Below the pieces are notes generated by a model. It was not told the origin of the DNA, made no database searches, and saw nothing but the letters and a program-made list of their open reading frames with translations. Source: a virus. Taken from it: 18,128 nt of DNA. The stretch covers positions 1 to 18,128 of IMG/VR virus record IMGVR_UViG_3300045988_000846; one strand, 5' to 3'. Below, piece by piece: positions 1 through 17,588 of the stretch. Position numbers and translations under genes: made by a program. The first letter of the stretch is position 1. Every line of letters starts with the position of its first letter.

Positions 1-202
1 AAGGAGGGGAGGGGTCCCAGCAGCTATCCTTTTTCCACAACTGCTCTATCCTGTGTTTTGCATTGCTGTTGCTTTGTGTGTTTTTGTATTGCCGTTGTTC
101 TCTGTGTTTTTCGTTTCCGCTCTCTTTGTGTTCGTTTCCTTGTCTTGTTTTGTCTTCGTTTTTTTGTGTGTTTTGGGTGTGTTGTTTTTTGTGGCGTGTT
201 AT
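1..202. repeat. Left inverted terminal repeat (ITR-L), 202 bp
   Basis: Positions 1-202 (AAGGAGGGGAGGGGTCCCAGC...GTGGCGTGTTAT) are the exact reverse complement of 17927-18128, compared base by base. Identity breaks at 203 (G) versus the complement of 17926 (A). The repeat starts at the first base of the window. Confidence 0.97.
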
Positions 203-205
203 GAT
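197..205 (+). promoter_or_regulatory. Extended -10 promoter-like element TGtTATGAT straddling the ITR/unique boundary
   Basis: TG-n-TATGAT at 197-205. The first 6 nt lie inside the ITR and the last 3 in unique DNA. The predicted start near 212 gives a ~29-nt leader carrying AAGGAAGGAAG (222-232) before ATG 241. There is no good -35. Confidence 0.45.
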
Positions 206-240
206 GTGAGTATCAACCGATAAGGAAGGAAGTAAATAAA

Positions 241-441
241 ATGATTAACAACAACATCATCAAGGATTACGTTGAGGATTACATCTTAAATAGTAATCAA
301 TTCATTGATGAGTTTGACGTTGATGCGATTGTTGAAAATCTGCATCATGTGGCCTTGGTTAATGATATAACTATTGAGGGATATGACGATTGCGATTCGT
401 TTCCGGCTGATGATTTTACGGAAGCGTTCAAGGAAGCGTGA
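241..441 (+). CDS. Small, very acidic early protein (66 aa), function unknown; possible DNA-mimic or host-takeover protein
   Basis: ATG 241 is preceded by a strong SD (222-232). Composition is 17 Asp/Glu, 2 Lys and 0 Arg. The gene is visibly AT-rich compared with the genome core. It is the first gene inside the left ITR. Confidence 0.8.
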   Translation: MINNNIIKDYVEDYILNSNQFIDEFDVDAIVENLHHVALVNDITIEGYDDCDSFPADDFTEAFKEA

Positions 442-446
442 AGGAT

Positions 447-515
447 ATGTTTCTTTCTGTTCTCGTTATCTGCTCGTGTGTTGTTGGTGTTGTTGTCGTC
501 TTTGGCATGATATAG
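447..515 (+). CDS. Possible 22-codon hydrophobic mini-ORF (MFLSVLVICSCVVGVVVVFGMI)
   Basis: ATG 447 to TAG 513-515. AAGGA lies only 1 nt upstream, which is poor spacing. Its hydrophobicity could simply reflect the T/G-rich strand. Confidence 0.15.
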   Translation: MFLSVLVICSCVVGVVVVFGMI

Positions 516-518
516 AAT
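490..518 (+). promoter_or_regulatory. Putative early promoter (TTGTTG - 17 nt - TAGAAT; alternatively the TGaTATAGA extended -10 at 508-516)
   Basis: TTGTTG at 490-495, a 17-nt spacer, then TAGAAT at 513-518. The TGATATA core (508-514) is the same as in the boxes at 7218 and 9636. It lies in the 173-nt non-coding gap upstream of gene 615. Confidence 0.35.
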
Positions 519-535
519 CGTGTTAGAAGGTTGAA

Positions 536-604
536 ATGTTGGATATTGTTTGTTGGACGGCGGTTGTCGTTGTGGTTTCCGTCGTTTTAGTGTCGTATCT
601 GTGA
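536..604 (+). CDS. Possible 22-codon hydrophobic mini-ORF (MLDIVCWTAVVVVVSVVLVSYL)
   Basis: ATG 536 has AGAAGG (525-530) 5 nt upstream. TGA 602-604 overlaps the GTGAGG SD of gene 615. It lies downstream of the putative promoter at 490-518. It is too short for the ORF track. Confidence 0.3.
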   Translation: MLDIVCWTAVVVVVSVVLVSYL

Positions 605-614
605 GGTAAATGAA

Positions 615-860
615 ATGGTTAAGGATGATAGGAAGATTGCCACGTTCCATTCTCCGTTCAGGGGCGGTGACGTTGGATTATGGTATTGCGCTCATCGCAA
701 TGTGTACGAACTTCGGTATGATGTCCGATTTTATTCGATGGACGGACTGACTGATGCAGTTGCATTAACGCCGTATGACGCATGTAACTACGACCAAGTG
801 GTCGACATCATCGTCGACGCTACTAACTTGGCGCTCACTCCACTTTTAGGGAGGGGTTAG
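615..860 (+). CDS. Hypothetical early protein (81 aa)
   Basis: ATG 615 is preceded by GTGAGGT. It is tightly packed with the next gene (stop 860, next ATG 863). I recognise no motif. Confidence 0.7.
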   Translation: MVKDDRKIATFHSPFRGGDVGLWYCAHRNVYELRYDVRFYSMDGLTDAVALTPYDACNYDQVVDIIVDATNLALTPLLGRG

Positions 861-862
861 CC

Positions 863-1066
863 ATGTATTTTCGTGGTTGGATTCATTCGTGGACCTGCGG
901 CAACTGTCCTGACGCTAACATATATTGGCGTTTACGTGCGTTTTGGGCAGGCGTGAAGCATAGACGTAGCGCGGATAATCCGCCGAAACGTTGCCCGAGC
1001 GGTTTTCTGTGGGAAACGTTGTGGCTGGACGGTTATGATAGTAACGAAGACACATTGGAGTTTTAA
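863..1066 (+). CDS. Hypothetical early protein (67 aa), Trp-rich with a CGNC motif
   Basis: ATG 863 is preceded by GGGAGGGG. It has 7 Trp in 67 aa, plus CxxC and one more Cys. I recognise no family. Confidence 0.65.
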   Translation: MYFRGWIHSWTCGNCPDANIYWRLRAFWAGVKHRRSADNPPKRCPSGFLWETLWLDGYDSNEDTLEF

Positions 1067-1068
1067 TT

Positions 1069-1593
1069 ATGAAATTGAAGAATTTGAATTTTGATAAAAG
1101 CGAAAAACGTACGAACTGGTTTGATGATGGCGTACTGGATGACGACCGTGTGCGCCGTGTCATTCGGGGGCGCCGCCGTAATCTGCACTTGCGCGAATAC
1201 AATCGAGGAGAAGGCGATTGGGAAACATTATGTCGTAGCATAATACTGCTCAAGAACTTTTACGAGCCTCAAGGGTCGCAAGTGGCGTTCGCCGACGGAG
1301 TGGAACATGCGGCAAACGTTTGTCTGTCACTGTCCCCCCGCACATCCCGTATCGGAGCGTTGGCGCGAACTCAGGACATTGAAATGCTGGGCGGCGTTAT
1401 TTATGCTCCGGCAATGGTGGCGTGGTGCGCCGTCTGTCATGTCAAGGGCGCGACATGCTATGAAATGTGCAAAGTCTGGGATGGCAACGAATTTGCCCAG
1501 ACTATTGTCAAAATCGCGTGTCGATGTTTTGACAATCTCACCGACGTGCGGTATACTGATGAAGACATTGCAAGAATGTCGCAACAGCAGTAA
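1069..1593 (+). CDS. Hypothetical early protein (174 aa), basic N-terminal half and Cys-rich C-terminal half (possible Zn binding)
   Basis: ATG 1069 has GGAG upstream. It contains RRVIRGRRRN and the cluster WCAVCHVKGATCYEMC (C-x2-C-x7-C-x3-C) plus CRC. I recognise no family. Confidence 0.7.
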   Translation: MKLKNLNFDKSEKRTNWFDDGVLDDDRVRRVIRGRRRNLHLREYNRGEGDWETLCRSIILLKNFYEPQGSQVAFADGVEHAANVCLSLSPRTSRIGALARTQDIEMLGGVIYAPAMVAWCAVCHVKGATCYEMCKVWDGNEFAQTIVKIACRCFDNLTDVRYTDEDIARMSQQQ

Positions 1594-1616
1594 CAATAAG
1601 ATAAGGCGGAATGATT

Positions 1617-1931
1617 ATGGCATATATCAAGAGAGCCAAGCATTACAGTATCGTGCGCGGCATCACGCGCGGTGAAAACGGTGAACTCGTTGATACGGAA
1701 GTGGTCGTGAATGGTGCGTGCCGTACAGCTGACATGGCTATGAAGAAAGCCCGCAAAATCAACAAGGACATGCTGCCCATGTCTGCCGAGTATCATGCGC
1801 AGGTAACGCGCATGAATGAGGCGATTTATTGGGCTAATTGCGAATTTGGGGATGATACCATTATCGACTATCCGGGGCCGGTTGACGGCAACGTGGTCGA
1901 AGATGATATTATCACCGAGGAAAATAATTAA
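1617..1931 (+). CDS. Putative histone-like dsDNA-binding protein (phi29 p6-like), 104 aa
   Basis: ATG 1617 (alternative 1611) follows AAGGCGGA. The size matches phi29 p6 as I remember it. GACRTADMAMKKARKI resembles p6 GNLTMEQAQWRMKRKY. It has an acidic C-terminal tail (VVEDDIITEENN) like p6. It lies immediately upstream of the SSB-like gene, as in phi29 transcription order 6-5-3-2. Confidence 0.5.
   Translation: MAYIKRAKHYSIVRGITRGENGELVDTEVVVNGACRTADMAMKKARKINKDMLPMSAEYHAQVTRMNEAIYWANCEFGDDTIIDYPGPVDGNVVEDDIITEENN
1882..1912 (+). promoter_or_regulatory. Promoter-like element (TTGACG - 19 nt - TGaTATTAT) upstream of the SSB-like gene
   Basis: TTGACG at 1882-1887 and extended -10 TGaTATTAT at 1904-1912, inside the 3' end of the p6-like gene and ~47 nt before ATG 1959. 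The spacer is 1-2 nt longer than optimal. Confidence 0.3.
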
Positions 1932-1958
1932 TAACCCCTATAAGGAAAGGCAACACTA

Positions 1959-2396
1959 ATGGCTGACAACGAACTGACCGTAACGAACGGCAACAACTTT
2001 TCCGCAAACGGCACTAACGCCGTATCCCACTTCTTCGACACCACTACTATGGACGGCAAGATGGCGCTCTACAACGCCATGCAAACCGCCGACAAGGTAG
2101 ATGAACATCTTAACGAACCGTTGCATGTCACCAACGTGCTGGCGCAGGCTATCGAAGTCGCCAATCAGGAGACCGGCGAAATCAATGCGTCCACCCGCGT
2201 CGTCATCCACGCAGAGGAAGGTGACTTTGCCGCCGCCTCCCCCACGCTGGCGCACGCATTCGGCAATCTGTTCGCCATTTTCGGCACGCCGGACACGTGG
2301 AACCAGCCACTTGCCCTCAAGGTGGTGGAAAAGAAGAGCCGCCGAGGCTACAAGTTCTTCGACCTTGAACTGGTGCCGGAAGGCAAGCGCAAGTAA
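1959..2396 (+). CDS. Putative single-stranded DNA-binding protein (phi29 p5-like), 145 aa
   Basis: ATG 1959 follows AAGGAAAGG. The C-terminal half aligns by eye with phi29 p5: STRVVIHAEEGDFAAASPTLAHAFGNLFAIF with [31 protein letters not shown], and LKVVEKKSRRGYKFFDLEL with VKVVQGTSSKGNVFFSLQL. It lies directly upstream of the TP/polymerase pair. Confidence 0.6.
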   Translation: MADNELTVTNGNNFSANGTNAVSHFFDTTTMDGKMALYNAMQTADKVDEHLNEPLHVTNVLAQAIEVANQETGEINASTRVVIHAEEGDFAAASPTLAHAFGNLFAIFGTPDTWNQPLALKVVEKKSRRGYKFFDLELVPEGKRK

Positions 2397-2415
2397 CACG
2401 ATTGTCCGCACCGTA

Positions 2416-2450
2416 TGATATCATGGCAATGTCCCTATAGGGATGTTGCC
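2416..2450 (+). promoter_or_regulatory. Intergenic element: extended -10-like TGaTATCAT followed by an 11-bp hairpin
   Basis: TGaTATCAT at 2416-2424. The hairpin pairs GGCAATGTCCC (2425-2435) with GGGATGTTGCC (2440-2450), giving 9 Watson-Crick and 2 G-U pairs. It lies in the 120-nt gap between the SSB-like and TP-like genes. No U tract follows. Confidence 0.3.
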
Positions 2451-2516
2451 GCCAGACTCACCCCCCGCCGTTTCCATCCTTGCGGCGAGGGGTGTTTCAT
2501 ACTCACAGGGGGAACC

Positions 2517-3461
2517 GTGGCAAAACGCAAAAACCGCCGACGCGCTGACATTCTGAAACGCAACGCCGCAATCAGGTCGGCACAGGTACGCCGAGACCGG
2601 GCAGTCGGGGATTACAGTACCGGACGCCTCCCCAAGCGAATCACCGAAACGTTTTTAGGAAATCTCAGTGCCCAACAGCTTGAGCAGGTGGCACGACGTA
2701 TCGGGCAGGAATTCGGAGAACAACAGCAAGCCTTGAGGGCGCGGGATAATGAGCCGTATCAGGTTGTCCCAGATGTTCATATTACGAAACTTGATCGTGA
2801 GATGGCCGCGCGTCCGCTGATAACTGATGCGGAAATCGCCGCCGCCCCGTCGAAACGTCGGAAAACATTGCGGCAGCAGCAGCGCCGCAGAGTTGAGGCA
2901 CGGCAGAAGATTAAGCGTGCCCAACAATTCGAGGCGCTGAGTATGGCCCGCTATACCGTGGGTGAAATGCGTGAAATGGAACGCGCGGGGGAATCTCCGT
3001 TCGACGTGTTAGGCACTCACACGGTCGGCGGTTCGGCACGTGACGAACTCATGCGAAGCCGTGCGAACGTGTTCAGTACAGAGCGTGGAATAAGCCATGC
3101 TCGTACGATGATGCGAGAAGGGAGCCGTAGGAAACTTGAGCGAGAAATGCTTGAATACGCCGGACTTATTGGACGTGCGCCATTACGCGCGGGAACTAGG
3201 CGTATCCCCGAGAACGAGGGTGTTTCTGATTTCGATAAGGTCGCGCAGCAACTTGAAGCATTCGATTTTAGTGTTGCTCAAAGATTCGCCGCCTTGTCGA
3301 ACCGTCAAAAACGATGGCTGATAAACAACACGAATTTCAGCACCGTAGTACGCGAGGCAACATGGTATAATGATAAGGCACACAAATGGGAGACTAAAGC
3401 AGACGCGGGAGATGTAGAGGCACGACTTGATGAATGGATGACCAGCGCAGCAAGACACTAA
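2517..3461 (+). CDS. Putative terminal protein (protein primer), ~314 aa
   Basis: It lies immediately upstream of, and overlaps, the polymerase ORF, the conserved TP-pol arrangement of phi29-type phages. The N-terminus is strongly basic (VAKRKNRRRADILKRNAAIRSAQVRR). The rest is Arg/Glu-rich and looks helical. I chose start GTG 2517 after AGGGGGA; the ORF is open from ATG 2415, so the start is uncertain. Sequence similarity to phi29 TP is not evident by eye beyond the basic N-terminus. Confidence 0.55.
   Translation: MAKRKNRRRADILKRNAAIRSAQVRRDRAVGDYSTGRLPKRITETFLGNLSAQQLEQVARRIGQEFGEQQQALRARDNEPYQVVPDVHITKLDREMAARPLITDAEIAAAPSKRRKTLRQQQRRRVEARQKIKRAQQFEALSMARYTVGEMREMERAGESPFDVLGTHTVGGSARDELMRSRANVFSTERGISHARTMMREGSRRKLEREMLEYAGLIGRAPLRAGTRRIPENEGVSDFDKVAQQLEAFDFSVAQRFAALSNRQKRWLINNTNFSTVVREATWYNDKAHKWETKADAGDVEARLDEWMTSAARH
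3363..3371 (+). promoter_or_regulatory. Consensus extended -10 (TGgTATAAT) inside the 3' part of the TP gene
   Basis: A perfect TGnTATAAT at 3363-3371, ~105 nt upstream of polymerase ATG 3476. It could be an internal promoter for the polymerase or a chance match. Confidence 0.25.
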
Positions 3462-3475
3462 AAAAGGATGGAATC

Positions 3476-4936
3476 ATGCGAGAGCGTCGAACGGCGGTAA
3501 CAGACGGCGCAACACTATTAACGGATGACGGCATAACGCCATTGACGGTGAATGCCGTCATTCGGCTAACCATGCTTGATCATCATACGCGCGTATGGTG
3601 CGCTCACGGATGGCAGGACATCAAGCCCATAGCCGCTCAACTATTGAAACGACTGCCATTGCAATCGAATCCGGCCAAAGATGGAGTCTGGGGCACTTTC
3701 AACATTCGTGGCCATTTCTACAGTTTCCGCGTGCGCATGGGCGGCATCACCGTGGATTTTCTGGACGTGCGCAACATCACGCGCGACGATGGACTGAATG
3801 TTTCACGTGAAACGTTTGGCGGCGCGGATGACTTGGAAACCACGTGGAATATCGCGCAGGAATGCGACGCCCTAAACCTCAAGGGCAATACAATAGCGTC
3901 CATGGCAATGGGCGATTATATCGGCGGGGATTACGCAGGATTCAAACGTCACTTCCCTCCATTGGATAAAGCGGAATATCATCGGATGCGCCCCGCATAC
4001 TATGGGGCGATAGTGTACAGCAGGCCGGGTGAATATCGGGATTGCAGGAGTTGGGACGTGAACAGCCTCTATCCGGGTATCATGCGCGACTTTGCCATGC
4101 CGGTAGGATCTCCCGTTTGGTATGAAGGGGAATATTATTATGACGCTGATTATCCGCTGCATATCGATGTTATCGCGTTCGACGCGCGACTGAAAACGGG
4201 AAAAACGGCGACACTCACAAACATCCTACCCGTATGGGGGTACGAGGGCGAACGTATGGACAGCACGTTGGGCGTCGTCACCATGCCGGTGGCCGACGTG
4301 GATTGGCAGACCTTGACGGAAAACTATGATGTCCATGTGTGGGAGTATATCGGCGGTTGGAAATTCCGTAAATCGCATGGACTCTACTACGAGTATGTGG
4401 ACAAATGGTTCCACGTGAAACAAACCGCAACCGGCGAGCGTCGGCAAATGGCGAAACTATTGCTTAATTCGTTGGTTGGGAAGTTTGGAGCCTCGCTTTA
4501 TCGGCCCATGCTGCACCCAAAGCCTTCTGGCGATGGCGGCGTGGATTTTACTGTAGACAAACCTGAGTCAACCAACTCGCTCGCATGGCTACCAACCGCC
4601 GCATATGTCAACGCCTACGGTCGGCAAATATTGTCACGCGCGATGAACGCGAACGCCGGTCGTGTGCTCTATGCCGATACGGACGGCATGATACTGGACG
4701 GACTGGATGCGCCTGCGGATATCGAAACGGACGATAGGAAACTGGGCGCGTGGAAAAACGACCACACCTATGGAAAACTTCGTATTCTCGGCAATCGCAA
4801 ATACTGCGGTGTGGAGACGGACGGCGGCACGGTGATGCGGTTGAGTGGCGTGCATCGGGCATCCCCTATCCACTACGACGACTTCCTTCCGAGGTCGCGC
4901 CATGTCAATGATGACGGCTGTTTTTTTGTGCTATGA
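3476..4936 (+). CDS. Protein-primed family B DNA polymerase (phi29 gp2-like), 486 aa
   Basis: ATG 3476 follows AAAAAGGATGG; the ORF is open from 3434. Motif A is WDVNSLYPGIM, motif B is KLLLNSLVGKFG and motif C is LYADTDG. A long collinear match to phi29 pol includes SPVWYEGEYYYDADYPLHIDVIAFDARLKTG against EPIVFEGKYVWDEDYPLHIQHIRCEFELKEG. A TPR2-like insertion lies between motifs B and C. The C-terminal VNDDGCFFVL matches VDDTFTIK. Confidence 0.93.
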   Translation: MRERRTAVTDGATLLTDDGITPLTVNAVIRLTMLDHHTRVWCAHGWQDIKPIAAQLLKRLPLQSNPAKDGVWGTFNIRGHFYSFRVRMGGITVDFLDVRNITRDDGLNVSRETFGGADDLETTWNIAQECDALNLKGNTIASMAMGDYIGGDYAGFKRHFPPLDKAEYHRMRPAYYGAIVYSRPGEYRDCRSWDVNSLYPGIMRDFAMPVGSPVWYEGEYYYDADYPLHIDVIAFDARLKTGKTATLTNILPVWGYEGERMDSTLGVVTMPVADVDWQTLTENYDVHVWEYIGGWKFRKSHGLYYEYVDKWFHVKQTATGERRQMAKLLLNSLVGKFGASLYRPMLHPKPSGDGGVDFTVDKPESTNSLAWLPTAAYVNAYGRQILSRAMNANAGRVLYADTDGMILDGLDAPADIETDDRKLGAWKNDHTYGKLRILGNRKYCGVETDGGTVMRLSGVHRASPIHYDDFLPRSRHVNDDGCFFVL

Positions 4937-4937
4937 T
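4929..4937 (+). promoter_or_regulatory. Extended -10 TGcTATGAT overlapping the polymerase stop codon
   Basis: TG-c-TATGAT at 4929-4937. The pol TGA (4934-4936) lies inside the hexamer. A T7 run lies just upstream (4921-4927). A weak -35, aTGACg, sits at 4911-4916 with a 15-nt spacer. The predicted start near 4944-4946 falls right at the base of the long stem described for the ncRNA. Confidence 0.4.
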
Positions 4938-4944
4938 GATCGGT

Positions 4945-5108
4945 AGCGGGGTGTGCGTCCCAAGCTGATTCAATGGCCCGACCGGTGGGCAATCGGTAAG
5001 GCGATTCGGTCGGATGTAGACGTGCGTAGCCAACGCCCATTGACGGCGAGGGAACCCGCACAGCCTAGCAATCCGGCACGGTGGCGTGATTGCCGCCGTG
5101 CCTTCTAC
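4945..5108 (+). ncRNA. Candidate structured ncRNA, proposed packaging RNA (pRNA)
   Basis: The 180-nt gap has no ORF. By-eye folding gives a long interrupted stem pairing 4946-4976 with 5037-5069: TGTGCG/CGCACA, TCCC/GGGA, GCTG/CGGC and TCAATGG/CCATTGA. The stem closes a three-way junction. One arm is a bulged hairpin at 4978-5013 (7 bp + 5 bp, 6-nt bulge GUGGGC, loop GUAAGG). The other is a short hairpin at 5024-5036 (loop AGCCA). A 3' hairpin follows at 5075-5102. The length of ~160 nt is comparable to the 174-nt phi29 pRNA. The genome encodes gp10- and gp16-like partners. Confidence 0.45.
5075..5102 (+). terminator. GC-rich hairpin (11-bp stem), terminator-like
   Basis: GGCACGGTGGC (5075-5085) pairs with GCCGCCGTGCC (5092-5102), giving 10 Watson-Crick and 1 G-U pair with loop GTGATT. 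It is followed by TTCTACCTT, a weak U tract. It sits just before the scaffold SD. Confidence 0.5.
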
Positions 5109-5122
5109 CTTAAGAGGTGATT

Positions 5123-5467
5123 ATGGACGACATCGAAAACGACGACAGGCCGGACACCACGCCCGACACTGAACCGGACGTGGCCGCTGACGACAATACG
5201 CCGACCCCGGAACCTGAAACGCAGGACGATAACGAACCCGAGGACGCGGGCGACGACAAGAACGCCGACATGGCCGATCGGCTGAGCGCGTTGGAGGCGA
5301 CCGTGGCGGAATTGTCCAAAACCGTTGAGGCGATGCGCGACGCCGCCGCCGACCACGTGCTGAACGATGGCCCCGACGACAATGCAACGCCGGAATCGGA
5401 CGATGAAATGACCGACGACGACTACAACGGCACCTACAGCACGTTCGACGACCTATACGAAGACTGA
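5123..5467 (+). CDS. Putative scaffolding protein (phi29 gp7 position), 114 aa, extremely acidic
   Basis: ATG 5123 follows AAGAGG; the ORF is open from GTG 5117. It has Asp/Glu/Pro/Thr-rich flanks around a helical core (ADRLSALEATVAELSKTVEAMRDAAAD). It lies directly upstream of the major capsid gene. Confidence 0.7.
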   Translation: MDDIENDDRPDTTPDTEPDVAADDNTPTPEPETQDDNEPEDAGDDKNADMADRLSALEATVAELSKTVEAMRDAAADHVLNDGPDDNATPESDDEMTDDDYNGTYSTFDDLYED

Positions 5468-5489
5468 CGATTAGAAAGGAATGACTATC

Positions 5490-7220
5490 ATGGCAACCAC
5501 TCCCGTGGTGACGCCGAAGCAGCAGCTTCGACCGCTCACCGAGTTCAACAACGCTCAGATTCTCAACATGATTCGCAACGAGGCGTCGCCGGAGTATCAG
5601 CGGCGAATGCCCTCGGCCACTCAGATGAACATGGATAGGCAGATGGCTACGCTTATGTCGTCCACCCAGCTTAAGAACGAGTTTTATTCGGCGTTGGTGA
5701 ACCGCATCGGCGGCACCTACGTGAACACGTGGCGTTGGAACAATCCTCTTGGCGTTTTCCAGCGCGCATCGCAGGCGTATGGCGATACGTGGCAGGAAAT
5801 CGCCGTTGGAATGCCTCTTGCGCAGGTCTACGACCCTAATGCGGAATATCTCGGCGCGGATAATTTCCGCAAGTGGAAAATCGACGTGGATTCACTCTAT
5901 CACCGTCTTGACTTCGCTCACTGGTATCCGGCGACCACGGATGACAAGACGTTGCAGCGTGCCTTCACTTCCGAAAACGGTTTGGCCTCGCTCACTTCCC
6001 AGATTCTCACATCCTGCTACAATGCGGCTGAGGTTGACTTGTTCGAGGCCATGTGCCACCAGTTCGTCGAATACGCGAAGCTCGGCGGATATTGGCGCGT
6101 CCATATGGATAACGATCTGAACAACATGGGCAGTTCGGAAACGGACGCCCGCGATATGCTGCGTCAGATTCGCGCATGGGCCGACACGCTTAAATTCGTC
6201 AGCACCAAGTACAACGCCCGTCACATGCCGACCTTCGCCCGTCCGGATGAACTTGTGCTGTTCTGTTCCCCGGAAGTCAAGTCGGCGCTTGACGTGCAGG
6301 GCCTCGCCACGGTATTCCAGCGTACGGACGCGGAGCCGACAATCGACCGGATTATCGTCATTCCGCAGGACAGGTTCGGCATGGATGGCGTGCAGGCCAT
6401 TTTGACTACCGACAAGTTCCTGATTGACATTCCCGTCATCAACGAGATGACCCAGCAGACAAATCCGGTGAACATCAATTCAGTCAACCATTACCTGCAT
6501 GTCCAGCACATCATCTCAGTGTCCGGCTTCGCCCCGGCTGTGATGTTTTGGACGGGCGCCGGTTCCACTGCGAACGTGGTGGCTCCCACCGGCACGCAGG
6601 CTCAGGCGCCGACGTTCCAGCTCAAGCTCGCCATGTATGGCGGCGGCACGACCACGCCGGAGAATGTGGCGCGTGGTGGCGCGGTGCAGGTCACTGCCGA
6701 TACGACCATCGGAAATGACGGTACCGCCACGTTCCGCTCGGATGCGGTTGAGTATCGTATCGGAGACACCGCCAAGCCGAAGAGCGATTACACGTATATC
6801 TCGCCCACCGGCGTGCTCGTGGTCGGCCTTGACGAACCGAACACCACTATCCCGGTGACGGCGACCGCCTTGTACACGAATCCGGCGACGCCGGAAGTGC
6901 CGGGAACCGTGTCCGCGGCTCTGGACGTGCCAGTGGTCGGTGACGGTGTCATCGGATTCAACCCGTCCATCGTCGCGTCCATTGCCGTGACCGTACCGAA
7001 CGTGACCGTAGGACATACGGCGCAGGCCACCGCCGTGGCGACCATGATTGACGGTCGTACCGCCGACGTGACGGCACAGGCGGCATGGACGTCCGGCACT
7101 CCGGCGAACGCCACCGTGTCCGAGTCGGGCGTGGTGACCGGTGTCAAGGCGGGCGGATCTGATATCACCGCCACACTGTTCGGCGTGTCCGGTAAGAAGA
7201 GCGTGACCGTGACGGCGTGA
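5490..7220 (+). CDS. Major capsid protein with C-terminal Ig-like (Big_2-type) domain(s), 576 aa
   Basis: ATG 5490 lies 9 nt after GAAAGGA; ATG 5481 is an alternative. It occupies the position after the scaffold gene, as in phi29 gene 8. The C-terminus TAQATAVATMIDGRTADVTAQAAWTSGTPANATVSESGVVTGVKAGGSDITATLFGVSGKKSVTVTA matches the bacterial Ig-like group 2 pattern. phi29 gp8 also carries a BIG2 domain. Confidence 0.85.
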   Translation: MATTPVVTPKQQLRPLTEFNNAQILNMIRNEASPEYQRRMPSATQMNMDRQMATLMSSTQLKNEFYSALVNRIGGTYVNTWRWNNPLGVFQRASQAYGDTWQEIAVGMPLAQVYDPNAEYLGADNFRKWKIDVDSLYHRLDFAHWYPATTDDKTLQRAFTSENGLASLTSQILTSCYNAAEVDLFEAMCHQFVEYAKLGGYWRVHMDNDLNNMGSSETDARDMLRQIRAWADTLKFVSTKYNARHMPTFARPDELVLFCSPEVKSALDVQGLATVFQRTDAEPTIDRIIVIPQDRFGMDGVQAILTTDKFLIDIPVINEMTQQTNPVNINSVNHYLHVQHIISVSGFAPAVMFWTGAGSTANVVAPTGTQAQAPTFQLKLAMYGGGTTTPENVARGGAVQVTADTTIGNDGTATFRSDAVEYRIGDTAKPKSDYTYISPTGVLVVGLDEPNTTIPVTATALYTNPATPEVPGTVSAALDVPVVGDGVIGFNPSIVASIAVTVPNVTVGHTAQATAVATMIDGRTADVTAQAAWTSGTPANATVSESGVVTGVKAGGSDITATLFGVSGKKSVTVTA

Positions 7221-7228
7221 TATAATGG
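7217..7228 (+). promoter_or_regulatory. GTGATATAATGG box (consensus extended -10) overlapping the capsid stop codon
   Basis: TGaTATAAT at 7218-7226, with the capsid TGA at 7218-7220. The identical 12-mer recurs at 9635-9646. Confidence 0.4.
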
Positions 7229-7232
7229 GAGG

Positions 7233-7313
7233 GTAGCCGGTTGGCTACTCTCTCTCACGGTGTGATGCAGGACAAGGCCCGGAGCGTTATCCACGTGATT
7301 GCTCCGGGCCTTG
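7233..7313 (+). terminator. Two hairpins after the capsid gene (partial terminator/attenuator or 5' leader structure)
   Basis: Hairpin 1 pairs GTAGCC (7233-7238) with GGCTAC (7243-7248), has loop GGTT and is followed by TCTCTCTC. Hairpin 2 is a perfect 13-bp stem pairing CAAGGCCCGGAGC (7273-7285) with GCTCCGGGCCTTG (7301-7313), with a 15-nt loop. There is no clean U tract. Confidence 0.45.
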
Positions 7314-7331
7314 CCATACCGGAGGATAATA

Positions 7332-9638
7332 ATGATCGACGACGCTAACCCTTACGTGGAATCTAATTTTTCTTGGGCGGAATGGACGCCAAACACGACG
7401 TTGAAACTCTGCCGCGTGCCATGGGATGCTTCATACCGTGATATCGTGCGGTTTGTTTCACGTGAAACACAGCGGGAATGGTTCGACGAACTGGACGGCG
7501 TGGAATGCCGTCCGGCCACCATGCATGTTTTCGGCGCCCCCGTTCGTATCGACATGCCATTTAACCAAGCGTCAAACTATAATTACCTTGTCGCCGTCAA
7601 TGATTACCCCGAACTGGAATCGCCACGCGCTTGGTATTATTTCATCGAATCCGTGGAATACATTAACGCGCACGCCACACAACTCACGCTTATGCTGGAC
7701 GTATGGCAAAGTTTCCAGTTTGACGTGAGTTTTGGCAGTTGCTATGTGACGCGCGGCCATATCGGCATCGCCAATGAACGCCAATGGGACGATTACGGGC
7801 GTACCACGCTTGCACTGCCGGAGGGACTGGACACCGGCGCGGAAACCGTCGTTACCTCACAGTCATATACGACGCTTATATCCAGCAAGCCCGCGCAGCC
7901 CGGGTTTAACTCACCAACCTTGGATTATGGTGTCATTGTCGTGGCTACAACCGATCTTGCGGTGTCGGGCGGTAGTACTGAAAAACCGTCGTTGAAAACC
8001 GCGCAAGGCTCACAATTCGAGAATCAATCCAATGGCGCGGGGATTTATTATTTTGACACCGCCGACGATTTCACGCGCGTTATGCAGGCGGGAAGTTCGT
8101 ACCCGTGGGTCACTCAGGGCATTACGGCGATCTACGCCATTCCCAAAATCAGCGCCGACTATATAGCCGACGCCGGTAGAGAGGTAACGCAATTTTTTGG
8201 CAACGACGTGGCCGGCGTGGTTAAAGGGCATGTGTATACGTTTATGTGGGAGGCTAGAAGCGATAACAGGTATGACGATATTGTCTCTATCAAGAATTTT
8301 CGCAATAACTTCAATATCCCCAAACGGTATCATAATCTGAAAAAACTACAGTGCTATCCGTATAGCGTCGTGGAATGTTCGTGCCTGAATGGCTCGAATG
8401 TCATCTATCGACCCGAAGATATCCAGTCCAATGACTTGGTTATCCGCGAAACGTGGAATTACGCGCCGCCGTCTCCGCGTTTGAACTTTTACCCGGTGAA
8501 CTACAATACGTCAGGCGCGCGCGCCGTTTCCTCCCCGTCCGGGAACGGTACCGGGCTGCCGATCGATGGCGGGGAAATGCTTAACGTCAGTTTCGGTATC
8601 ACGAACTTCCCTCAGTTCATGGTGGTGAATAACGGGGCCTCGCTTGCTATGGCGAACAGCGCATACGCTCGCGCATATGCGGAGCAGTCGGCCGGATGGG
8701 CGCAGCAGAAAGCGACCATGAGCGCGGCAAACGCATTATCTCAGGCCGGTACGGCGATTCGCACCCAGCAGGAGATGACCCAACTGGGTATCACCAACCG
8801 TAACGCGCTGAATGCCATCGCGGCCAACTCGCTTAACCAGTCGTTGGCTATCGGGCAGGCGAACACCAACGCCATGACCGACCTGAACGTATCACAAAAC
8901 AACGCGCGAACCGCGTGGGGGCTGATTTCCAATGCGGGTAGCGCATTGGCGTCAGGGAGCGTGGCCGGACTGATTGGCGGCGCCGTCGGCGCCGTCGGCG
9001 GCATCGTGCAGAACGACATCACCAACAAGGGACTGTACGCGAGTCGTGACATCGCCAACGATACGGCAGCTGCAAACACCGCCAACAGTGTGGCGACCAA
9101 CGCGGCGCAAACATCGCAGGCGAACACTTACGCGCAACGCGCACAGCAGATTCAGGGCGCGTCCAGCGCTCTGATGGCCGGGCAGAACTATCGGTTGGCC
9201 ACGCGCTTTGCCGAAGGGGATTATGAGAACTCCATAGCTGGGATCAACGCTCAAGTCCAGCAAATGCAGATGACCCCGCCGACTACGAGCGGTTCGGCGG
9301 GCGGCGACTCGTTCAACCTCGCTAACGGTATTATGGGCGTGTTGGTCCGTTTCCGCACGTGCGCCCCCAGCGCGTTGCGTTCGGTTGGCGAATTCATGTT
9401 GCGTTTCGGGTATTTTGTCCAGCGTTTCGTCACCCCGCCCGCAAGTTTGCAATGTATGGAGAAATTCACGTACTGGCAGATGCAGGAATGCTATATTAAA
9501 GGTACGCTTCCCGAACAGGCGCGGCTAACCATTAAGGGCATGTTCGAGCGTGGTGTGACGGTTTGGAGCAAGCCCGAGTATATCGGCGTGACCGACTGGG
9601 CGGACAATGATCCACTTCCGGGCATTGGCTACGAGTGA
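7332..9638 (+). CDS. Tail knob / distal tail tube protein (phi29 gp9-like), 768 aa
   Basis: ATG 7332 follows GGAGGA; the upstream part of the ORF lies in the hairpin. The N-terminal match is YNYLVAVNDYPELESPRAWYYFIESVEYINAHATQLTLMLDVWQSFQFDVSF against phi29 gp9 [49 protein letters not shown]. The C-terminal match is FMLRFGYFVQRF...FTYWQMQECYIKGTLPEQARLTIKGMFERGVTVW against FFHKYGYKINRV...[34 protein letters not shown]. Confidence 0.88.
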   Translation: MIDDANPYVESNFSWAEWTPNTTLKLCRVPWDASYRDIVRFVSRETQREWFDELDGVECRPATMHVFGAPVRIDMPFNQASNYNYLVAVNDYPELESPRAWYYFIESVEYINAHATQLTLMLDVWQSFQFDVSFGSCYVTRGHIGIANERQWDDYGRTTLALPEGLDTGAETVVTSQSYTTLISSKPAQPGFNSPTLDYGVIVVATTDLAVSGGSTEKPSLKTAQGSQFENQSNGAGIYYFDTADDFTRVMQAGSSYPWVTQGITAIYAIPKISADYIADAGREVTQFFGNDVAGVVKGHVYTFMWEARSDNRYDDIVSIKNFRNNFNIPKRYHNLKKLQCYPYSVVECSCLNGSNVIYRPEDIQSNDLVIRETWNYAPPSPRLNFYPVNYNTSGARAVSSPSGNGTGLPIDGGEMLNVSFGITNFPQFMVVNNGASLAMANSAYARAYAEQSAGWAQQKATMSAANALSQAGTAIRTQQEMTQLGITNRNALNAIAANSLNQSLAIGQANTNAMTDLNVSQNNARTAWGLISNAGSALASGSVAGLIGGAVGAVGGIVQNDITNKGLYASRDIANDTAAANTANSVATNAAQTSQANTYAQRAQQIQGASSALMAGQNYRLATRFAEGDYENSIAGINAQVQQMQMTPPTTSGSAGGDSFNLANGIMGVLVRFRTCAPSALRSVGEFMLRFGYFVQRFVTPPASLQCMEKFTYWQMQECYIKGTLPEQARLTIKGMFERGVTVWSKPEYIGVTDWADNDPLPGIGYE

Positions 9639-9646
9639 TATAATGG
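9635..9646 (+). promoter_or_regulatory. GTGATATAATGG box (consensus extended -10) overlapping the tail-knob stop codon, 6 nt before the portal ATG
   Basis: TGaTATAAT at 9636-9644, with the knob TGA at 9636-9638. The hexamer ends at 9644 and the portal ATG begins at 9651. There is no SD in between, which is consistent with a leaderless transcript. Confidence 0.5.
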
Positions 9647-9650
9647 CAGT

Positions 9651-10601
9651 ATGAGCAGGTCTAAAAAGAATCGAGTCGGCGGCGCGTTGCACCCGCGCGG
9701 CAATTACGCGAAAACACGCGCCGTCACGCTTGATGACATGTATCTTCATTTGCTGATGGAACTCGCGTTGAACCGTTTCAGTTGGCGCGGATTGCCGCCC
9801 ACTGTGGACGAACGTTGGCTGGAAATATGTCTGTGCGAATACGGTTGCGCGCTGTTTTTCGAAGACAAACGTATCGGCAGGTTCCTTGTGACTCAGGCGG
9901 GCTATCAGGGCAGACTGAACGTGTACAATAATCCGACATGCTTCGAGCCGGTAGGCGTCAACTACCATTACAGGCAACTCAAGGCCGGTTCGGAATGCAT
10001 CCCCATTTGGGACAATCGAATGCGCGTCGGATTCAAACCGACATTATGGCAGTACGCGCGACGCCTTGCCGATATCGACAAAGCGTACGATGTGAACTTG
10101 GAGAGTCTTAAACTGCCGACCATCATAACCGCCGACCCCCGCACCAAGCTCACCGTGCAGAACATGCTTCAGCAACGGCAGGACGGTCAGGACTATATCA
10201 TAGGATACGATTCGCTTGACCCCGGCAGTATGTTCCAGCCGTGGCCGAACACCACGCCCTATCTGCTGGATAAGTTTATTCAGCAGAAAGCACAGGTGAC
10301 TAACGAAGTGTTGGGGTATCTCGGCATTCAATCGTCCGGCACGGAAAAAAAGGAACGGCTGATCTCCGACGAAGTTGCGCAGGCCAATGAGAAAACAGAC
10401 GTGTTCCGCTTGAGTTTCCTCAAGGCGCGGCAGGCTGCGGCGACCGAGATTAACCGATTATGGCCGCAACTGAACGTGTGGGTGGAATACGCGGACGCGC
10501 AAAGCTCCGGCGTGCCGAACGCGCTTGATTCAAGCGCAAGCGGTACGACGGATATTGACATGCCAGCATCATACGACGCGGATATCGGAGGTGTATTGTA
10601 A
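9651..10601 (+). CDS. Portal / upper collar connector protein (phi29 gp10-like), 316 aa
   Basis: LALNRFSWRGLPPTV matches phi29 gp10 LAYQLFEWENLPPTI. YLGIQSSGTEKKERLISDEV matches [20 protein letters not shown]. The N-terminus is basic (MSRSKKNRVGGALHPRGNYAKTR), like the pRNA-binding N-terminus of gp10. Confidence 0.93.
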   Translation: MSRSKKNRVGGALHPRGNYAKTRAVTLDDMYLHLLMELALNRFSWRGLPPTVDERWLEICLCEYGCALFFEDKRIGRFLVTQAGYQGRLNVYNNPTCFEPVGVNYHYRQLKAGSECIPIWDNRMRVGFKPTLWQYARRLADIDKAYDVNLESLKLPTIITADPRTKLTVQNMLQQRQDGQDYIIGYDSLDPGSMFQPWPNTTPYLLDKFIQQKAQVTNEVLGYLGIQSSGTEKKERLISDEVAQANEKTDVFRLSFLKARQAAATEINRLWPQLNVWVEYADAQSSGVPNALDSSASGTTDIDMPASYDADIGGVL

Positions 10602-11395
10602 TGGCACAGGATTTTAGCGCCTACGCGATGACGACGCCGGGGGAGTACACCGAAACCCTCGGTAATCTTATCGCATTCGGCTATGATACCGACGACAAAC
10701 TGCATCTTAGCGCCGATTATTACCCGATTTACGACGAATCTCATCGCGCGGAATTAAATGAGAAGATTATCCGCCATTACGCGCTTAGGGAGATAGGACA
10801 GGAAACCGCGCAGCAGTTCGTTTTCTATCTGGGTATGACAATGGCGGAGATCATGCCCTATTTCAACGAACGCTATCGGACACTGGACATGGAATATGAT
10901 CCGCTGGACTCCATGGACATGACAACGGACAGTGAGAGCGACAGCGAATCCCAGTCGTCTGGTAGGGCATCCAGTACGCAGGACTCTAACAGCAGCAGTA
11001 CCAGCAAGTCGGATAATTCCAGCACCACCACGTCAAAGAGTTTCGACAGTGACGTGCCGCAGACCGGCGTCGTGGGCGACTTCGCACGCTACGCGAGCCA
11101 CGCGAACGAGTCGCAGGCGAACAGCTCCGGCACGGCATCCAGTTCTCAGGATTCAACCAGCCACACCACCGCACAAAGCGCAACCGACTACCAGCATGAT
11201 TCAAACAATTCCAAGGGCAAGAGCCATGTGACCGGGCGCAGCCAAAGCGCCATGAGCCTGATACAGGAATACCGGAACGCCATCATCAACGTGGACATGG
11301 AAATCGTACGGAGCCTTGAGCCGTGTTTCATGCAGGTGTGGGGTTCGTATGATACAATATTCAGCAACTGCCATAACTATGGAGAATGGGAGTGA
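10601..11395 (+). CDS. Lower collar protein (phi29 gp11 position), 264 aa
   Basis: The ATG overlaps the portal stop (TAATG) and follows GGAGGTG. Position and size are as in phi29 gene 11. The N-terminal pattern YPIYDESHRAELNEKIIRHYALREIGQETAQQFVFYLGMTMAEIMPYFNERY is typical of lower collar proteins as I remember them. The central part is Ser/Thr-rich. Confidence 0.7.
   Translation: MAQDFSAYAMTTPGEYTETLGNLIAFGYDTDDKLHLSADYYPIYDESHRAELNEKIIRHYALREIGQETAQQFVFYLGMTMAEIMPYFNERYRTLDMEYDPLDSMDMTTDSESDSESQSSGRASSTQDSNSSSTSKSDNSSTTTSKSFDSDVPQTGVVGDFARYASHANESQANSSGTASSSQDSTSHTTAQSATDYQHDSNNSKGKSHVTGRSQSAMSLIQEYRNAIINVDMEIVRSLEPCFMQVWGSYDTIFSNCHNYGEWE
11350..11358 (+). promoter_or_regulatory. Extended -10-like TGaTACAAT inside the 3' end of the collar gene
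   Basis: TG-a-TACAAT at 11350-11358, ~40 nt before ATG 11398. It may drive the fibre module or be a chance match. Confidence 0.25.
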
Positions 11396-11397
11396 CA

Positions 11398-12033
11398 ATG
11401 AGTGCCGTTAATGCACTGGTACCACGGGAACGATTGTTTGACGGAATACCTACATCCGTTCCGTTCACGTATCGGGACGGATTGACCACGTTGCAGTTGA
11501 TTGAATGTCTACGCCATAATCTCGATACCCTCCAATGTGATTTGAGCAGGTTGGAGGGGGTCACTACTGACCTAGCGGTATCCGTGGACAAAACCCTTGC
11601 GGACACCGTGGCGCAGGTCAACAAGTCGATGGACGATTTGCGGGCGGAAATGCTGGCCCTGATTCATGAGATGGAACAACAGGGCGCGGCCACCTCCCCC
11701 GTGTATGGCACCACGCAACCGCTCGGGGATGTGCTTGGCGGCATGTACGATAATGCGCGCAATCACGGATTGTTCTGGGGTGATTATGACGACATGCTGT
11801 TGACCGCGCAGGAATACGACGGGCTTGGACTCGGCGCACGTGAGTACGATCTGAGGGCCACCGCCGTGGATAATTGCGTCCCCGGTGATTTTCCGGGCCG
11901 CCCCCAATTCCCCTACGGGAAATCCATGCCGGAGAACCCCGTGGCGGACATGGCGTTTATCACGCAGTCCGAGGCGGACGCACGCTATGTCGAACGTAAT
12001 CCAACCGCAGACAATTTCGATAGGAAGGAATAA
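11398..12033 (+). CDS. Putative tail/collar-associated structural protein (211 aa), function unknown
   Basis: ATG 11398 follows GGGAG; the ORF is open from 11386. It lies between the collar and fibre genes. It has a predicted coiled segment (LSRLEGVTTDLAVSVDKTLADTVAQVNKSMDDLRAEMLALIHEME). I recognise no family. Confidence 0.6.
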   Translation: MSAVNALVPRERLFDGIPTSVPFTYRDGLTTLQLIECLRHNLDTLQCDLSRLEGVTTDLAVSVDKTLADTVAQVNKSMDDLRAEMLALIHEMEQQGAATSPVYGTTQPLGDVLGGMYDNARNHGLFWGDYDDMLLTAQEYDGLGLGAREYDLRATAVDNCVPGDFPGRPQFPYGKSMPENPVADMAFITQSEADARYVERNPTADNFDRKE

Positions 12034-12038
12034 TTGCC

Positions 12039-12458
12039 ATGACTGCGACCAACAAGACAAAAAATTACAACCTCAGCCAGTTTGTCGGCTCCGACCGTCC
12101 TACGTGGCTCGGAGATTACAACAGCGATATGTCGAAAATCGACGCGCAGCTGAAGCAGAACGCGGACGACATCGCATCAGCAGCAGCCGGTGGCCTCACT
12201 TCGGTAAGCCATACCGCCGACCTTACCGGAAACGGCACATCCGGCTCTCCGCTGGGCGTGGCGAACACCGTCGCAAAGAAGACCGATATCCCGGACGCGA
12301 GCAGATTCGCCACCACCTCCGCCCTCACCTCGGGGCTTGCGGGCAAGGTCGATAAAACCGCCTCGCAGCCAAGCACGCTCGGATTGACGGCGGCTGAACT
12401 TGATTCGATGTACAAGGACGCGAACGGCATCGTCCGCGTTGGTAACGCCGGCGCCTAG
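12039..12458 (+). CDS. Short tail fibre/appendage protein (139 aa) with the conserved N-terminal anchor motif
   Basis: ATG follows AGGAAGGA. The N-terminus NYNLSQFVGSDRPTWLGDYNSDMSKIDAQL is paralogous to the N-terminus of the next gene. It also contains a fibre-like repeat, LTGNGTSGSPLGV. Confidence 0.65.
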   Translation: MTATNKTKNYNLSQFVGSDRPTWLGDYNSDMSKIDAQLKQNADDIASAAAGGLTSVSHTADLTGNGTSGSPLGVANTVAKKTDIPDASRFATTSALTSGLAGKVDKTASQPSTLGLTAAELDSMYKDANGIVRVGNAGA

Positions 12459-12475
12459 GGAAAAGGAAAATAACA

Positions 12476-13921: not shown

Positions 13922-13950
13922 GTGTTTTCGCTTGAAAATCTAATCCATAC

Positions 13951-13974
13951 CCCCGCTCGGTACGCCGGGTGGGG
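13951..13974 (+). terminator. GC-rich hairpin after the fibre gene (10-bp stem, UACG loop)
   Basis: CCCCGCTCGG (13951-13960) pairs with CCGGGTGGGG (13965-13974), giving 8 Watson-Crick and 2 G-U pairs with loop TACG. It is immediately followed by TATACTATTATC. Confidence 0.45.
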
Positions 13975-13980
13975 TATACT
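13975..13980 (+). promoter_or_regulatory. -10-like TATACT 6 nt upstream of the SD-less tail-lysin ATG
   Basis: TATACT at 13975-13980 and ATG at 13987. No SD lies within 12 nt. The spacing is the same as at the portal gene. Confidence 0.35.
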
Positions 13981-13986
13981 ATTATC

Positions 13987-15252: not shown

Positions 15253-15262
15253 CGCAACGGTA

Positions 15263-15284
15263 AACCGGTAGATATCTACCGGTT
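15263..15284 (+). terminator. Perfect 22-bp palindrome AACCGGTAGAT/ATCTACCGGTT (hairpin or operator)
   Basis: It lies 11 nt after the tail-lysin stop. It can form a 9-bp stem with an AUAU loop. No U tract follows. A promoter-like element lies 14 nt downstream. Confidence 0.4.
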
Positions 15285-15297
15285 CATCCATACCTTA

Positions 15298-16411: not shown

Positions 16412-16419
16412 GGAATATA

Positions 16420-17570: not shown

Positions 17571-17588
17571 CAAATAGCAACAGAGAAT

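Follow-up and report, generated by a model that had tools for sequence, protein, structure and literature searches.

A conserved structured RNA gene between the polymerase and scaffold genes of a phi29-like phage, a candidate diverged packaging RNA

We found that the non-coding gap between the DNA polymerase gene and a scaffold-like gene of IMG/VR virus record IMGVR_UViG_3300045988_000846, analysed over its positions 1 to 18,128 (the window), almost certainly holds a real, strongly conserved gene for a structured phage RNA. The RNA would run on the plus strand from 4945 to about 5105, roughly 160 nucleotides (nt), and we think it rather likely that it is a packaging RNA (pRNA) of the phi29 type, highly diverged in sequence and encoded at another genomic site than the known ones. 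A pRNA with its own promoter and terminator had been proposed for this gap in an earlier, sequence-only reading of the window, all coordinates of which proved correct.

Why one DNA-packaging motor contains an RNA is an old puzzle, and phi29-type pRNA (Rfam family RF00044, Phage_pRNA) is known in the Bacillus phages phi29, PZA, M2/Nf, B103, SF5 and GA-1. The molecule has been called unique to phi29 and its Bacillus-infecting relatives (PMC5066667; PMC11476376, 2024), which in a 2016 review were the only phages known to need RNA for packaging (PMC5066667). Detection of pRNAs in archaeal ampullaviruses has been reported, and competing ideas exist on the evolution of pRNA (PMC7672431). A full-text literature search, incomplete in its coverage, returned no account of a pRNA from Bifidobacterium phages or from other phi29-like phages of Actinobacteria.

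Results

The locus and its predicted fold

The gap (4937-5122) is 186 nt long and has a G+C content (GC) of 0.61 against 0.54 window-wide; the remaining gaps of at least 150 nt (442-614 and 17571-18128) have a GC of 0.41, and it is, as the sequence-only reading had stated, the single long GC-rich non-coding gap. Relatives were grouped into clade 1, comprising 80 IMG/VR contigs with capsid proteins 92-98% identical to that of the window, clade 2, comprising the cultured phages BD811P2 and BP1 with 80 related contigs (71-90% identity), and clade 3, comprising seven more diverged contigs. The elements of the locus, all on the plus strand, are as follows, with the evidence for each in brackets.

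4929-4937, plus: extended -10 promoter element TGcTATGAT, overlapping the polymerase stop codon TGA at 4934-4936 (read directly)
A4945/G4946, plus: predicted transcription start, 8-9 nt past the -10 (promoter geometry)
4946-4976, plus: helix A, 5' strand, interrupted (fold, RNAalifold consensus, two-sided changes in clades 1 and 3)
4977, plus: single unpaired base from helix A to helix C (fold, RNAalifold)
4978-4984, plus: helix C, 5' strand CCGACCG, pairing with 5007-5013 (5/7 pairs changed on both sides, clade 1 against clade 3)
4985-4991, plus: 5'-side bulge GUGGGCA, counterpart of the phi29 CE or right-hand loop (fold, alignment)
4992-5005, plus: helix E AUCG/CGAU, 4 base pairs (bp), with the 6-nt E loop GUAAGG at 4996-5001 (2/4 pairs covary)
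5007-5013, plus: helix C, 3' strand CGGUCGG, preceded by U5006 as a single-base bulge or G-U pair (fold, alignment)
5014-5023, plus: single-stranded C/D joiner AUGUAGACGU, nearly invariant (clade-3 counterpart AUGUAAAAU)
5024-5036, plus: helix D hairpin GCG(U)/(A)CGC with loop (U)AGCCA(A) (3/4 stem pairs covary)
5037-5069, plus: helix A, 3' strand, abutting helix D without an unpaired base (fold, RNAalifold, covariation)
5070-5074, plus: single-stranded linker AAUCC, leading from the junction domain to the 3' hairpin (fold, RNAalifold)
5075-5102, plus: 3' hairpin, 12-bp G+C-rich stem with loop region C-GUGAUU-G at 5085-5092 (fold, RNAalifold; 6/12 pairs covary)
5112-5125, plus: ribosome-binding site AAGAGGUG and ATG (5123) of the scaffold-like gene (sequence)

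The three-way junction that had been drawn by eye is also what RNAfold returned as the minimum-energy structure of 4940-5110, including the bulge, the AGCCA loop and the 3' hairpin (-83.7 kcal/mol; z = -3.43, with none of 200 shuffled sequences as stable), and the centroid structure is the same as the minimum-energy fold. The minus strand is less stable (z = -2.37). Helix A closes a junction domain of about 124 nt (4946-5069) and carries a conserved, invariant 3-nt bulge, ACC (5054-5056), in its 3' strand.

The promoter element that had been placed at 4929-4937 is present, with no recognisable -35 hexamer, and a simple consensus promoter scan missed it for this reason. The form TGnTATAAT is kept in essentially all relatives of clades 1, 2 and 3, and BadAztec1 has TATAGT. 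In the clade-1 alignment, the A preceding GCGGGG is invariant and the 7 nt upstream of that A vary freely. Of the terminator claimed for the RNA, the hairpin at 5075-5102 is there and a proper U-tract is not: only a partial one, UUCUACCUU, follows it, the scaffold ribosome-binding site comes directly after, the arrangement is weaker than that of the BD811P2 clade, and our terminator scan did not list the hairpin. The hairpin is probably a leaky terminator or a 3'-end-forming hairpin. No second promoter is visible between the hairpin and the scaffold gene, in the window or in clade 3, and this, together with the partial U-tract and the nearby ribosome-binding site, implies that late mRNA must read through the hairpin or begin at the 4929-4937 promoter.

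Conservation and covariation

All 80 clade-1 contigs carry the region, at 83-95% nucleotide identity. Across 79 genomes (the window and 78 close relatives), the junction domain varies at 0.038 per site, roughly six-fold less than third codon positions (0.24 in the polymerase and 0.22 in the capsid gene) and at the level of first and second codon positions (0.05 and 0.03), which indicates that this non-coding domain is as constrained as protein sequence. The 3' hairpin shows a higher variation, 0.117, that arises through compensatory changes, for example CACGGUGGC/GCCGCCGUG vs CAUGACGGC/GCCGUCAUG.

A covariance model built on clade 1 (R2) finds clade 3 (e.g. L173:2039-2213) with 76-82 bits (E-value ~1e-17) at the same genomic position. 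When clades 1 and 3 are aligned, 95.5% of the cells are standard pairs and 26 of the 56 pairs have changed on both sides (251 cells), in an alignment that was fitted to the model and in which clade 3 amounts to about one evolutionary event per pair. These pairing values were reached in 0 of 500 column shuffles, and upon sliding the partners by 1-3 columns only 3-4 two-sided pairs remained. Covariation in relatives, absence of which the sequence-only reading had named as grounds for giving up its pRNA proposal, is found in every helix, the 3' hairpin as well as helices A, C, E and D, with the proportions listed above for all but helix A. Furthermore, many conserved G-U pairs assign the RNA to the plus strand, since the complement would turn them into C-A mismatches.

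Complementarity between the bulge and the D loop

It had been noted that the bulge and the D loop are complementary over 3 nt in either of two registers, and this had been likened to the bulge/loop pairing of phi29 pRNA. Both registers exist; only GGC (4988-4990) with GCC (5029-5031) is conserved, each being kept in 82 of the 83 distinct rows while the loop neighbours vary, and UGG/CCA is peculiar to this genome. The likeness itself does not follow from the 3 bp of the window alone, and it gains its support from relatives, where matches of 4-6 bp with varied sequences and covariation are observed.

Clade-1 members L020, L022 and L044: GGCAAA/UUUGCC, 6 bp, chance P 0.002
Clade 3: UGGCA/UGCCA, 5 bp, P 0.002
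Clade 2: GCCA/UGGC, 4 bp, with ACCAC/GUGGU in BD811P2, P 0.003-0.03
Arthrobacter phages Anjali, Swim and Mendel: CAGCU/AGCUG, 5 bp counting the loop-closing G, P ~0.01
Curtobacterium phages Prophecy and Ayka: UUGCA/UGCAA, 5 bp, P ~0.012

With the exceptions of BadAztec, Tillums and Thatch, complementarity is kept through sequence change across the lineages, with a chance P of 0.002-0.03 each, the loop boundaries of some lineages being assigned by hand. In clade 2 the purine-rich and pyrimidine-rich strands are on swapped sides, and a bulge/loop pair is G-C in 57 rows, G-U in 7, A-U in 4 and A-C in none, with the A-U state occurring in three separate sublineages (L082, L152 and L086/88/89). In sequence, an intramolecular pseudoknot and pairing between copies look alike.

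Among individual clade-1 members, L020, L022 and L044 have the D loop UUUGCCG in place of UAGCCA (window 5027-5033), by which the match grows from 3 to 6 bp. A clade-1 outlier, L021:1338-1512, has many substitutions in the RNA, and its change of the bulge GGC to GGA would break one bulge/loop pair. We also tried a home-made descriptor (C helix, 5' bulge, E and D hairpins, at least 4 bp of complementarity); since it hit about 20 loci on each strand of the window, it can serve neither for detection nor for judging significance, and it was dropped.

Sister clades and wider distribution

An RNA between the polymerase and scaffold genes is found in three further clades of Bifidobacterium phages, namely clade 2, clade 3 and BadAztec. 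The clade-2 gap has first GTGCTATAAT, lying over the polymerase stop codon, then a long terminal helix and a three-way junction, next the hairpin GGCCCUC-CGUGAUUG-GAGGGCC with the U-tract AUUUUAUUU behind it, and lastly a late promoter, cATGATATAAT, which is a second invariant extended -10 element before the scaffold gene. Because a U-tract terminator is followed by a separate late promoter, the RNA of the BD811P2/BP1 clade is, by the layout of its signals, its own transcription unit and a free-standing gene. Within clade 2, 99.4% of the cells are paired and 15 pairs are compensatory, values that 0 of 500 shuffles match, and a covariance model built on the BD811P2 clade (R1) finds BP1 at 192 bits. 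The phages BadAztec and BadAargau share the gap; helix A and the terminator covary between these two genomes, their core is identical, and R2 scores them at 21-24 bits (E-values 7.5e-5 and 3e-4) at the same position. The 3'-hairpin loop C-GUGAUU-G is identical in clade 1 and in the BD811P2/BP1 clade (L082 4878-4885) on wholly different stems; such a conserved loop is unlike a plain terminator and may mark a protein-binding or processing site.

In phi29-like phages that infect Arthrobacter, Curtobacterium, Glutamicibacter and Rhizobium, a non-coding gap of 150-300 nt lies just before the scaffold gene; this gap follows the polymerase and one small gene and finishes with a strong hairpin. The phages with a syntenic candidate RNA, and the coordinates of the candidates under our record labels, are given below.

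Arthrobacter phages: Anjali, Swim, Mendel, Tillums
Curtobacterium phages: Prophecy, Ayka, Trapezoid, Squall, Thatch
Glutamicibacter phage: Voltaire
Rhizobium phage: RHph_N3_8
Coordinates: L166 4988-5140; L247 2803-2955; L253 961-1112; L254 806-958; L248 2934-3138; L255 932-1125; L249 2879-3099; L250 3020-3192; L252 2950-3115

Like the window RNA, the RNAs of these phages have a three-way junction on a long terminal helix, with a bulge on the 5' side, a short helix E (3-5 bp) with a 6-nt loop and a D hairpin, and after it a strong hairpin; unlike in the window, a small extra gene lies between RNA and polymerase. For the four Arthrobacter phages, RNAalifold returns a three-way junction whose joints have 0, 3 and 0 unpaired bases; the 5' bulge measures 6 nt, helix E 4 bp and the E loop, UUGAAU (UUGAGU in phi29), 6 nt, and 11 pairs are compensatory. 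Outside this set, the structures are single-sequence folds with inspection. The Arthrobacter-type RNAs are not alignable with that of the window, R2 scoring Anjali at 12 bits (E-value 0.19), though at the right place and on the right strand. Membership of the non-Bifidobacterium RNAs in the same family is suggestive, not proof.

In these non-Bifidobacterium phages the E loops UUGAAU, UUGAAA and UUGAUU resemble the UUGAGU of phi29, and the Arthrobacter and Curtobacterium phages have a common linker, (A)UCCGAA(U)A, from the terminal helix to the hairpin. The locus is unannotated in every GenBank record examined and is in some partly covered by a doubtful open reading frame (ORF). In Curtobacterium phage Reje (L167, NC_073477.1), the annotated start of gp05 (4056) falls inside the predicted RNA and hairpin (4056-4150); the homologue in the near-identical Trapezoid starts about 90 nt later, and the Reje start has therefore probably been called too early. 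The small ORFs in the same gap of Swim (gene 11) and Tillums (gene 11) may be doubtful.

Packaging-motor proteins and relatives of the phage

The 18.1-kb window is a complete or near-complete genome of a phi29-like small podophage, and the genes that bear on the RNA and on virion assembly are listed below.

3434-4936, plus: protein-primed family-B DNA polymerase (PHROG profile)
5123-5467, plus: scaffold-like gene, ATG at 5123 (ORF list)
5481-7220: major head protein (PHROG profile)
7299-9638: tail protein (PHROG profile)
9651-10601, plus: upper collar or portal, phi29 gp10 homologue, N-terminus MSRSKKNR (PHROG profile; 1h5w, E-value 2e-36)
10601-11395: lower collar (PHROG profile)
15305-16411, plus: packaging ATPase, full-length phi29 gp16 homologue (PHROG profile; 7jqq, E-value 2e-33)

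The window thus encodes the gp10 connector, the gp16-type ATPase without nuclease and the protein-primed polymerase of a phage with a phi29-type motor. Both motor homologues had been claimed in the sequence-only reading, together with a basic portal N-terminus, and full-length alignments to 7jqq and 1h5w bear the homologues out. The N-terminus of the portal, MSRSKKNR, is basic, and the RNA-binding N-terminus of phi29 gp10 is likewise basic. Residues 13-349 of the ATPase align to residues 6-318 of gp16 (7jqq), the short C-terminal domain included, which in phi29 gp16 is a vestigial nuclease that lies against the pRNA (PMC7672431). By analogy, the portal is the presumed docking partner of the RNA and the ATPase the presumed partner of helix A.

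When the whole window was compared with GenBank phages by megablast, no match at the DNA level was obtained, and relatives were for this reason reached via the capsid protein. The nearest cultured relatives are the Bifidobacterium phages BadAztec, BadAargau, BD811P1-3 and BP1 (37-42% identity), followed by Arthrobacter, Curtobacterium and other actinobacterial phi29-like phages. Since the nearest cultured capsid relatives infect Bifidobacterium, the host is probably a (gut) Bifidobacterium.

Comparison with phi29 pRNA

We took the structure line of RF00044 as the reference layout of phi29 pRNA; the window RNA compares with phi29 as follows.

Helix A: paired 5' and 3' ends in both
Order of elements: A-C-bulge-E-loop-E-C-D-A in both
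Unpaired bases from A to C: 1 in phi29, 1 in the window
Unpaired bases from D to A: 0 in phi29, 0 in the window
Helix C: 9 bp in phi29, 7-8 bp in the window
5'-side bulge between C and E: 9 nt in phi29, 7-8 nt in the window
Helix E and E loop: 4 bp and 6 nt in both
Helix D: 6 bp in phi29, 3-4 bp in the window
D loop: 5 nt in phi29, 5-7 nt in the window
Bulge/D-loop complementarity: 4 bp in phi29, 3 G-C pairs in the window
Junction domain: 117-120 nt in phi29, 124 nt in the window
Whole RNA: 174 nt in phi29, about 160 nt in the window
Towards the 3' end: 13-nt linker and then domain II in phi29 (PMC5066667), 5-nt linker and 12-bp hairpin in the window
Gene: left genome end behind early promoter A1 in phi29, gap between polymerase and scaffold genes on the strand of all other genes in the window
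Phage: protein-primed polymerase, gp10-type portal and gp16-type ATPase in both
Hosts: Bacillus for the phi29 group, Actinobacteria for the window group

By position, the 3' hairpin of the window would be the equivalent of phi29 domain II. The CE bulge of one phi29 pRNA molecule pairs with the D loop of another, and nuclear magnetic resonance (NMR) sees only two G-C pairs there (PMC5066667). The location, which had been noted as unlike that of phi29, is indeed between the polymerase and scaffold genes and at no genome end.

The scan with the Rfam pRNA model, proposed earlier as a check, failed: RF00044 gave no match in the whole window at its gathering score of 100 bits (phi29 itself scores 145.4 bits) and none in 4850-5200 at an E-value of at most 10. 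Scans with Rfam over the window, over 4850-5200 at that E-value, and over the BD811P2 and Anjali loci returned only noise resembling terminators or small nucleolar RNAs (snoRNAs). By sequence the RNA falls outside RF00044, and in structure it has the layout of phi29 pRNA. Because the known pRNAs share just 12% sequence identity while keeping their secondary structure (PMC5066667), this failure weakens formal membership more than functional analogy.

A pRNA has also been proposed for Streptococcus phage Cp-1 (Martin, Lopez & Garcia 1996, as cited in PMC6266182), which a Bacillus-based covariance model could not reliably find (PMC6266182). As with the window RNA, this is a claim from sequence for a non-Bacillus phi29-like phage that Bacillus-based models miss. 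The GenBank record of Cp-1 has no pRNA feature, and when its three non-coding gaps were folded we saw no obvious counterpart. We know of no covariation support for a Cp-1 pRNA.

Discussion

Several observations weigh against a pRNA. In the phi29 RNA the three-base bulge of helix A, CCA, is required for ATPase binding and lies on the 5' strand, whereas that of the window (ACC) is on the 3' strand, and the C/D joiner has 10 nt in the window and 3 nt in phi29. All known pRNA genes are at a genome end (PMC11476376, PMC6266182), and that of the window is internal. RF00044 is also without a match in the BD811P2 and Anjali loci. The bulge/loop match of the window has only 3 bp, which in simulation arises by chance with P ~0.33 and is insignificant alone, and the invariance of GGC/GCC within clade 1 leaves no covariation signal there; Tillums and Thatch likewise match over just 3 bp, and BadAztec/BadAargau show no convincing match under their own fold or under the model alignment. 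R1 misses the window RNA as well as the clade-3 and BadAztec RNAs, even with its filters off, so that no formal alignment joins clades 1 and 2, and their relation is drawn from size, architecture and position, from the promoter over the polymerase stop codon and from the shared hairpin loop CGUGAUUG. Finally, the hairpin has no clean U-tract, the scaffold ribosome-binding site follows 9 nt on and no promoter lies between; the window element could consequently be a late-mRNA leader.

Such a cis-acting leader of the late (structural) operon, with 4929-4937 as the late promoter, is the main rival, and we regard it as unlikely. The element would then be a 5' untranslated region (UTR) acting on the scaffold/capsid mRNA through its read-through, stability or translation, whether as an attenuator, as a switch responding to a protein or ligand, or as a site of processing. 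A hairpin without a full U-tract stands, in the window and clade 3, within about 10 nt of the scaffold ribosome-binding site with no other promoter visible, and the succession of promoter, structured domain, terminator-like hairpin, ribosome-binding site and gene is the usual layout of attenuation leaders and riboswitch 5' UTRs, to which the Arthrobacter and Curtobacterium phages conform alike. In BD811P2/BP1, however, a canonical terminator closes the RNA and the late genes are preceded by a conserved promoter of their own, so the RNA cannot be a leader in that sister clade, where it is a separate unit. Unlike attenuation leaders, the window RNA shows no alternative or antiterminator pairing, its centroid structure being the minimum-energy fold in which helix A and the hairpin coexist, and it matches no Rfam cis-regulatory family at the gathering score, with chance-level snoRNA-like hits at an E-value of at most 10. 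A leader would also leave the pRNA-like architecture and the recurrent bulge/loop complementarity unexplained. An antiterminator between the bulge GGUGG and the hairpin CCGCC was considered and rejected, as the columns do not covary and A-C combinations occur.

The strong conservation, the covariation and the promoter of its own would equally suit a trans-acting phage small RNA with another function (regulation of host or phage genes, protein sequestration or an anti-defence decoy), as would the lack of sequence or covariance-model likeness to known pRNAs and the different gene location; we give this a somewhat lower chance than the leader. It would have to reproduce many independent features of pRNA (helix order, junction bases, side of the bulge, helix E, E loop, complementarity and 3' domain), the RNA lacks the long unstructured seed that base-pairing small RNAs typically have, and the phages carry gp16-type ATPases without a portal-binding nuclease domain (PMC7672431). 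That there is no functional RNA, and that the fold is a by-product of a G+C-rich spacer holding only a promoter and a terminator, is very improbable: G+C-rich sequence does fold stably, as the z-score of the minus strand illustrates, but variation here is six-fold below that of synonymous sites, the 26 compensatory pairs were matched by 0 of 500 shuffles, and the structure is kept across clades with unalignable sequences. A small protein in the gap is more improbable still; the mechanical ORF list contains 4953-5120 (plus, 55 amino acids, GTG start) and 4873-5061 (minus), yet substitutions track base pairs and not codon positions, and the GTG has no ribosome-binding site. In clade 1 there are indels of 1-3 nt in the D loop and linker and single-base indels in the bulge, and a coding reading was rejected upon frame-breaking cases such as GGC-AAU vs GGCAAAU, found in about half of the clade. 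Judged from these alignments, chance structure and a small ORF are excluded in practice.

If the RNA is a pRNA, its transcription would start at the extended -10 promoter over the polymerase stop codon, and its 3' end would be set by the hairpin at 5075-5102 through leaky termination or processing. Its 5' and 3' parts would pair as helix A and close the three-way junction with the C-E arm and the D hairpin. As in phi29, the junction-distal loops would anchor the RNA to the portal vertex of the empty prohead, successive copies could join into a ring by pairing of the bulge GGC with the D-loop GCC of the neighbour, and helix A would project outward and dock the gp16-type ATPase, which itself lacks a nuclease or portal-binding domain. 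We infer discrete accumulation of the RNA, pairing of bulge and loop between molecules, prohead binding and a need in packaging from this analogy.

More tentatively, and at a little less than even likelihood, pRNA may be an ancestral and general part of the phi29-type motor, with diverged pRNAs at the junction of replication and structural genes in phages of Actinobacteria (Bifidobacterium, Arthrobacter, Curtobacterium, Glutamicibacter) and of Rhizobium, and with the genome-end site in Bacillus phages derived. The RNA would then track the gp16-type ATPase without a nuclease domain and not the Bacillus host, and the origin of pRNA would move back to the root of the phi29-like group. It would also add a large collection of new natural pRNAs that differ in their three-way junctions and interlocking loops, dozens of variants for structure-function work and for RNA nanotechnology, a field that leans heavily on these two elements of phi29. 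Cultured systems are available in BD811P1-3 (B. dentium), BP1 (B. pseudocatenulatum), BadAztec (B. asteroides) and the Arthrobacter and Curtobacterium phages.

Other features of the window

Just 5' of the polymerase gene, and overlapping it by 28 nt, lies an ORF of 348 amino acids (2415-3461) without a PHROG match, which sits where related actinobacterial phages carry the terminal protein. The capsid protein (5481-7220) has a C-terminal extension of about 200 amino acids past the phi29-type head-protein domain, within which residues ~453-578 have weak matches to tail-protein PHROGs and may form an immunoglobulin (Ig)-like decoration domain. The second long gap, 442-614, A+T-rich at a GC of 0.41, holds the promoter-like GGCATGATATAGAAT, similar to the late promoter cATGATATAAT of the BD811P2 clade, and additionally a hairpin with a T-run (GACGGCGG...CCGTCGTTTT), together probably a promoter/terminator pair of the early region. 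Finally, a perfect palindromic hairpin at 17597-17618 (CCCCTAGG...CCTAGGGG) is terminator-like on both strands and, as it lies between the rightward genes and the leftward ORFs of the right end, is probably a bidirectional terminator.

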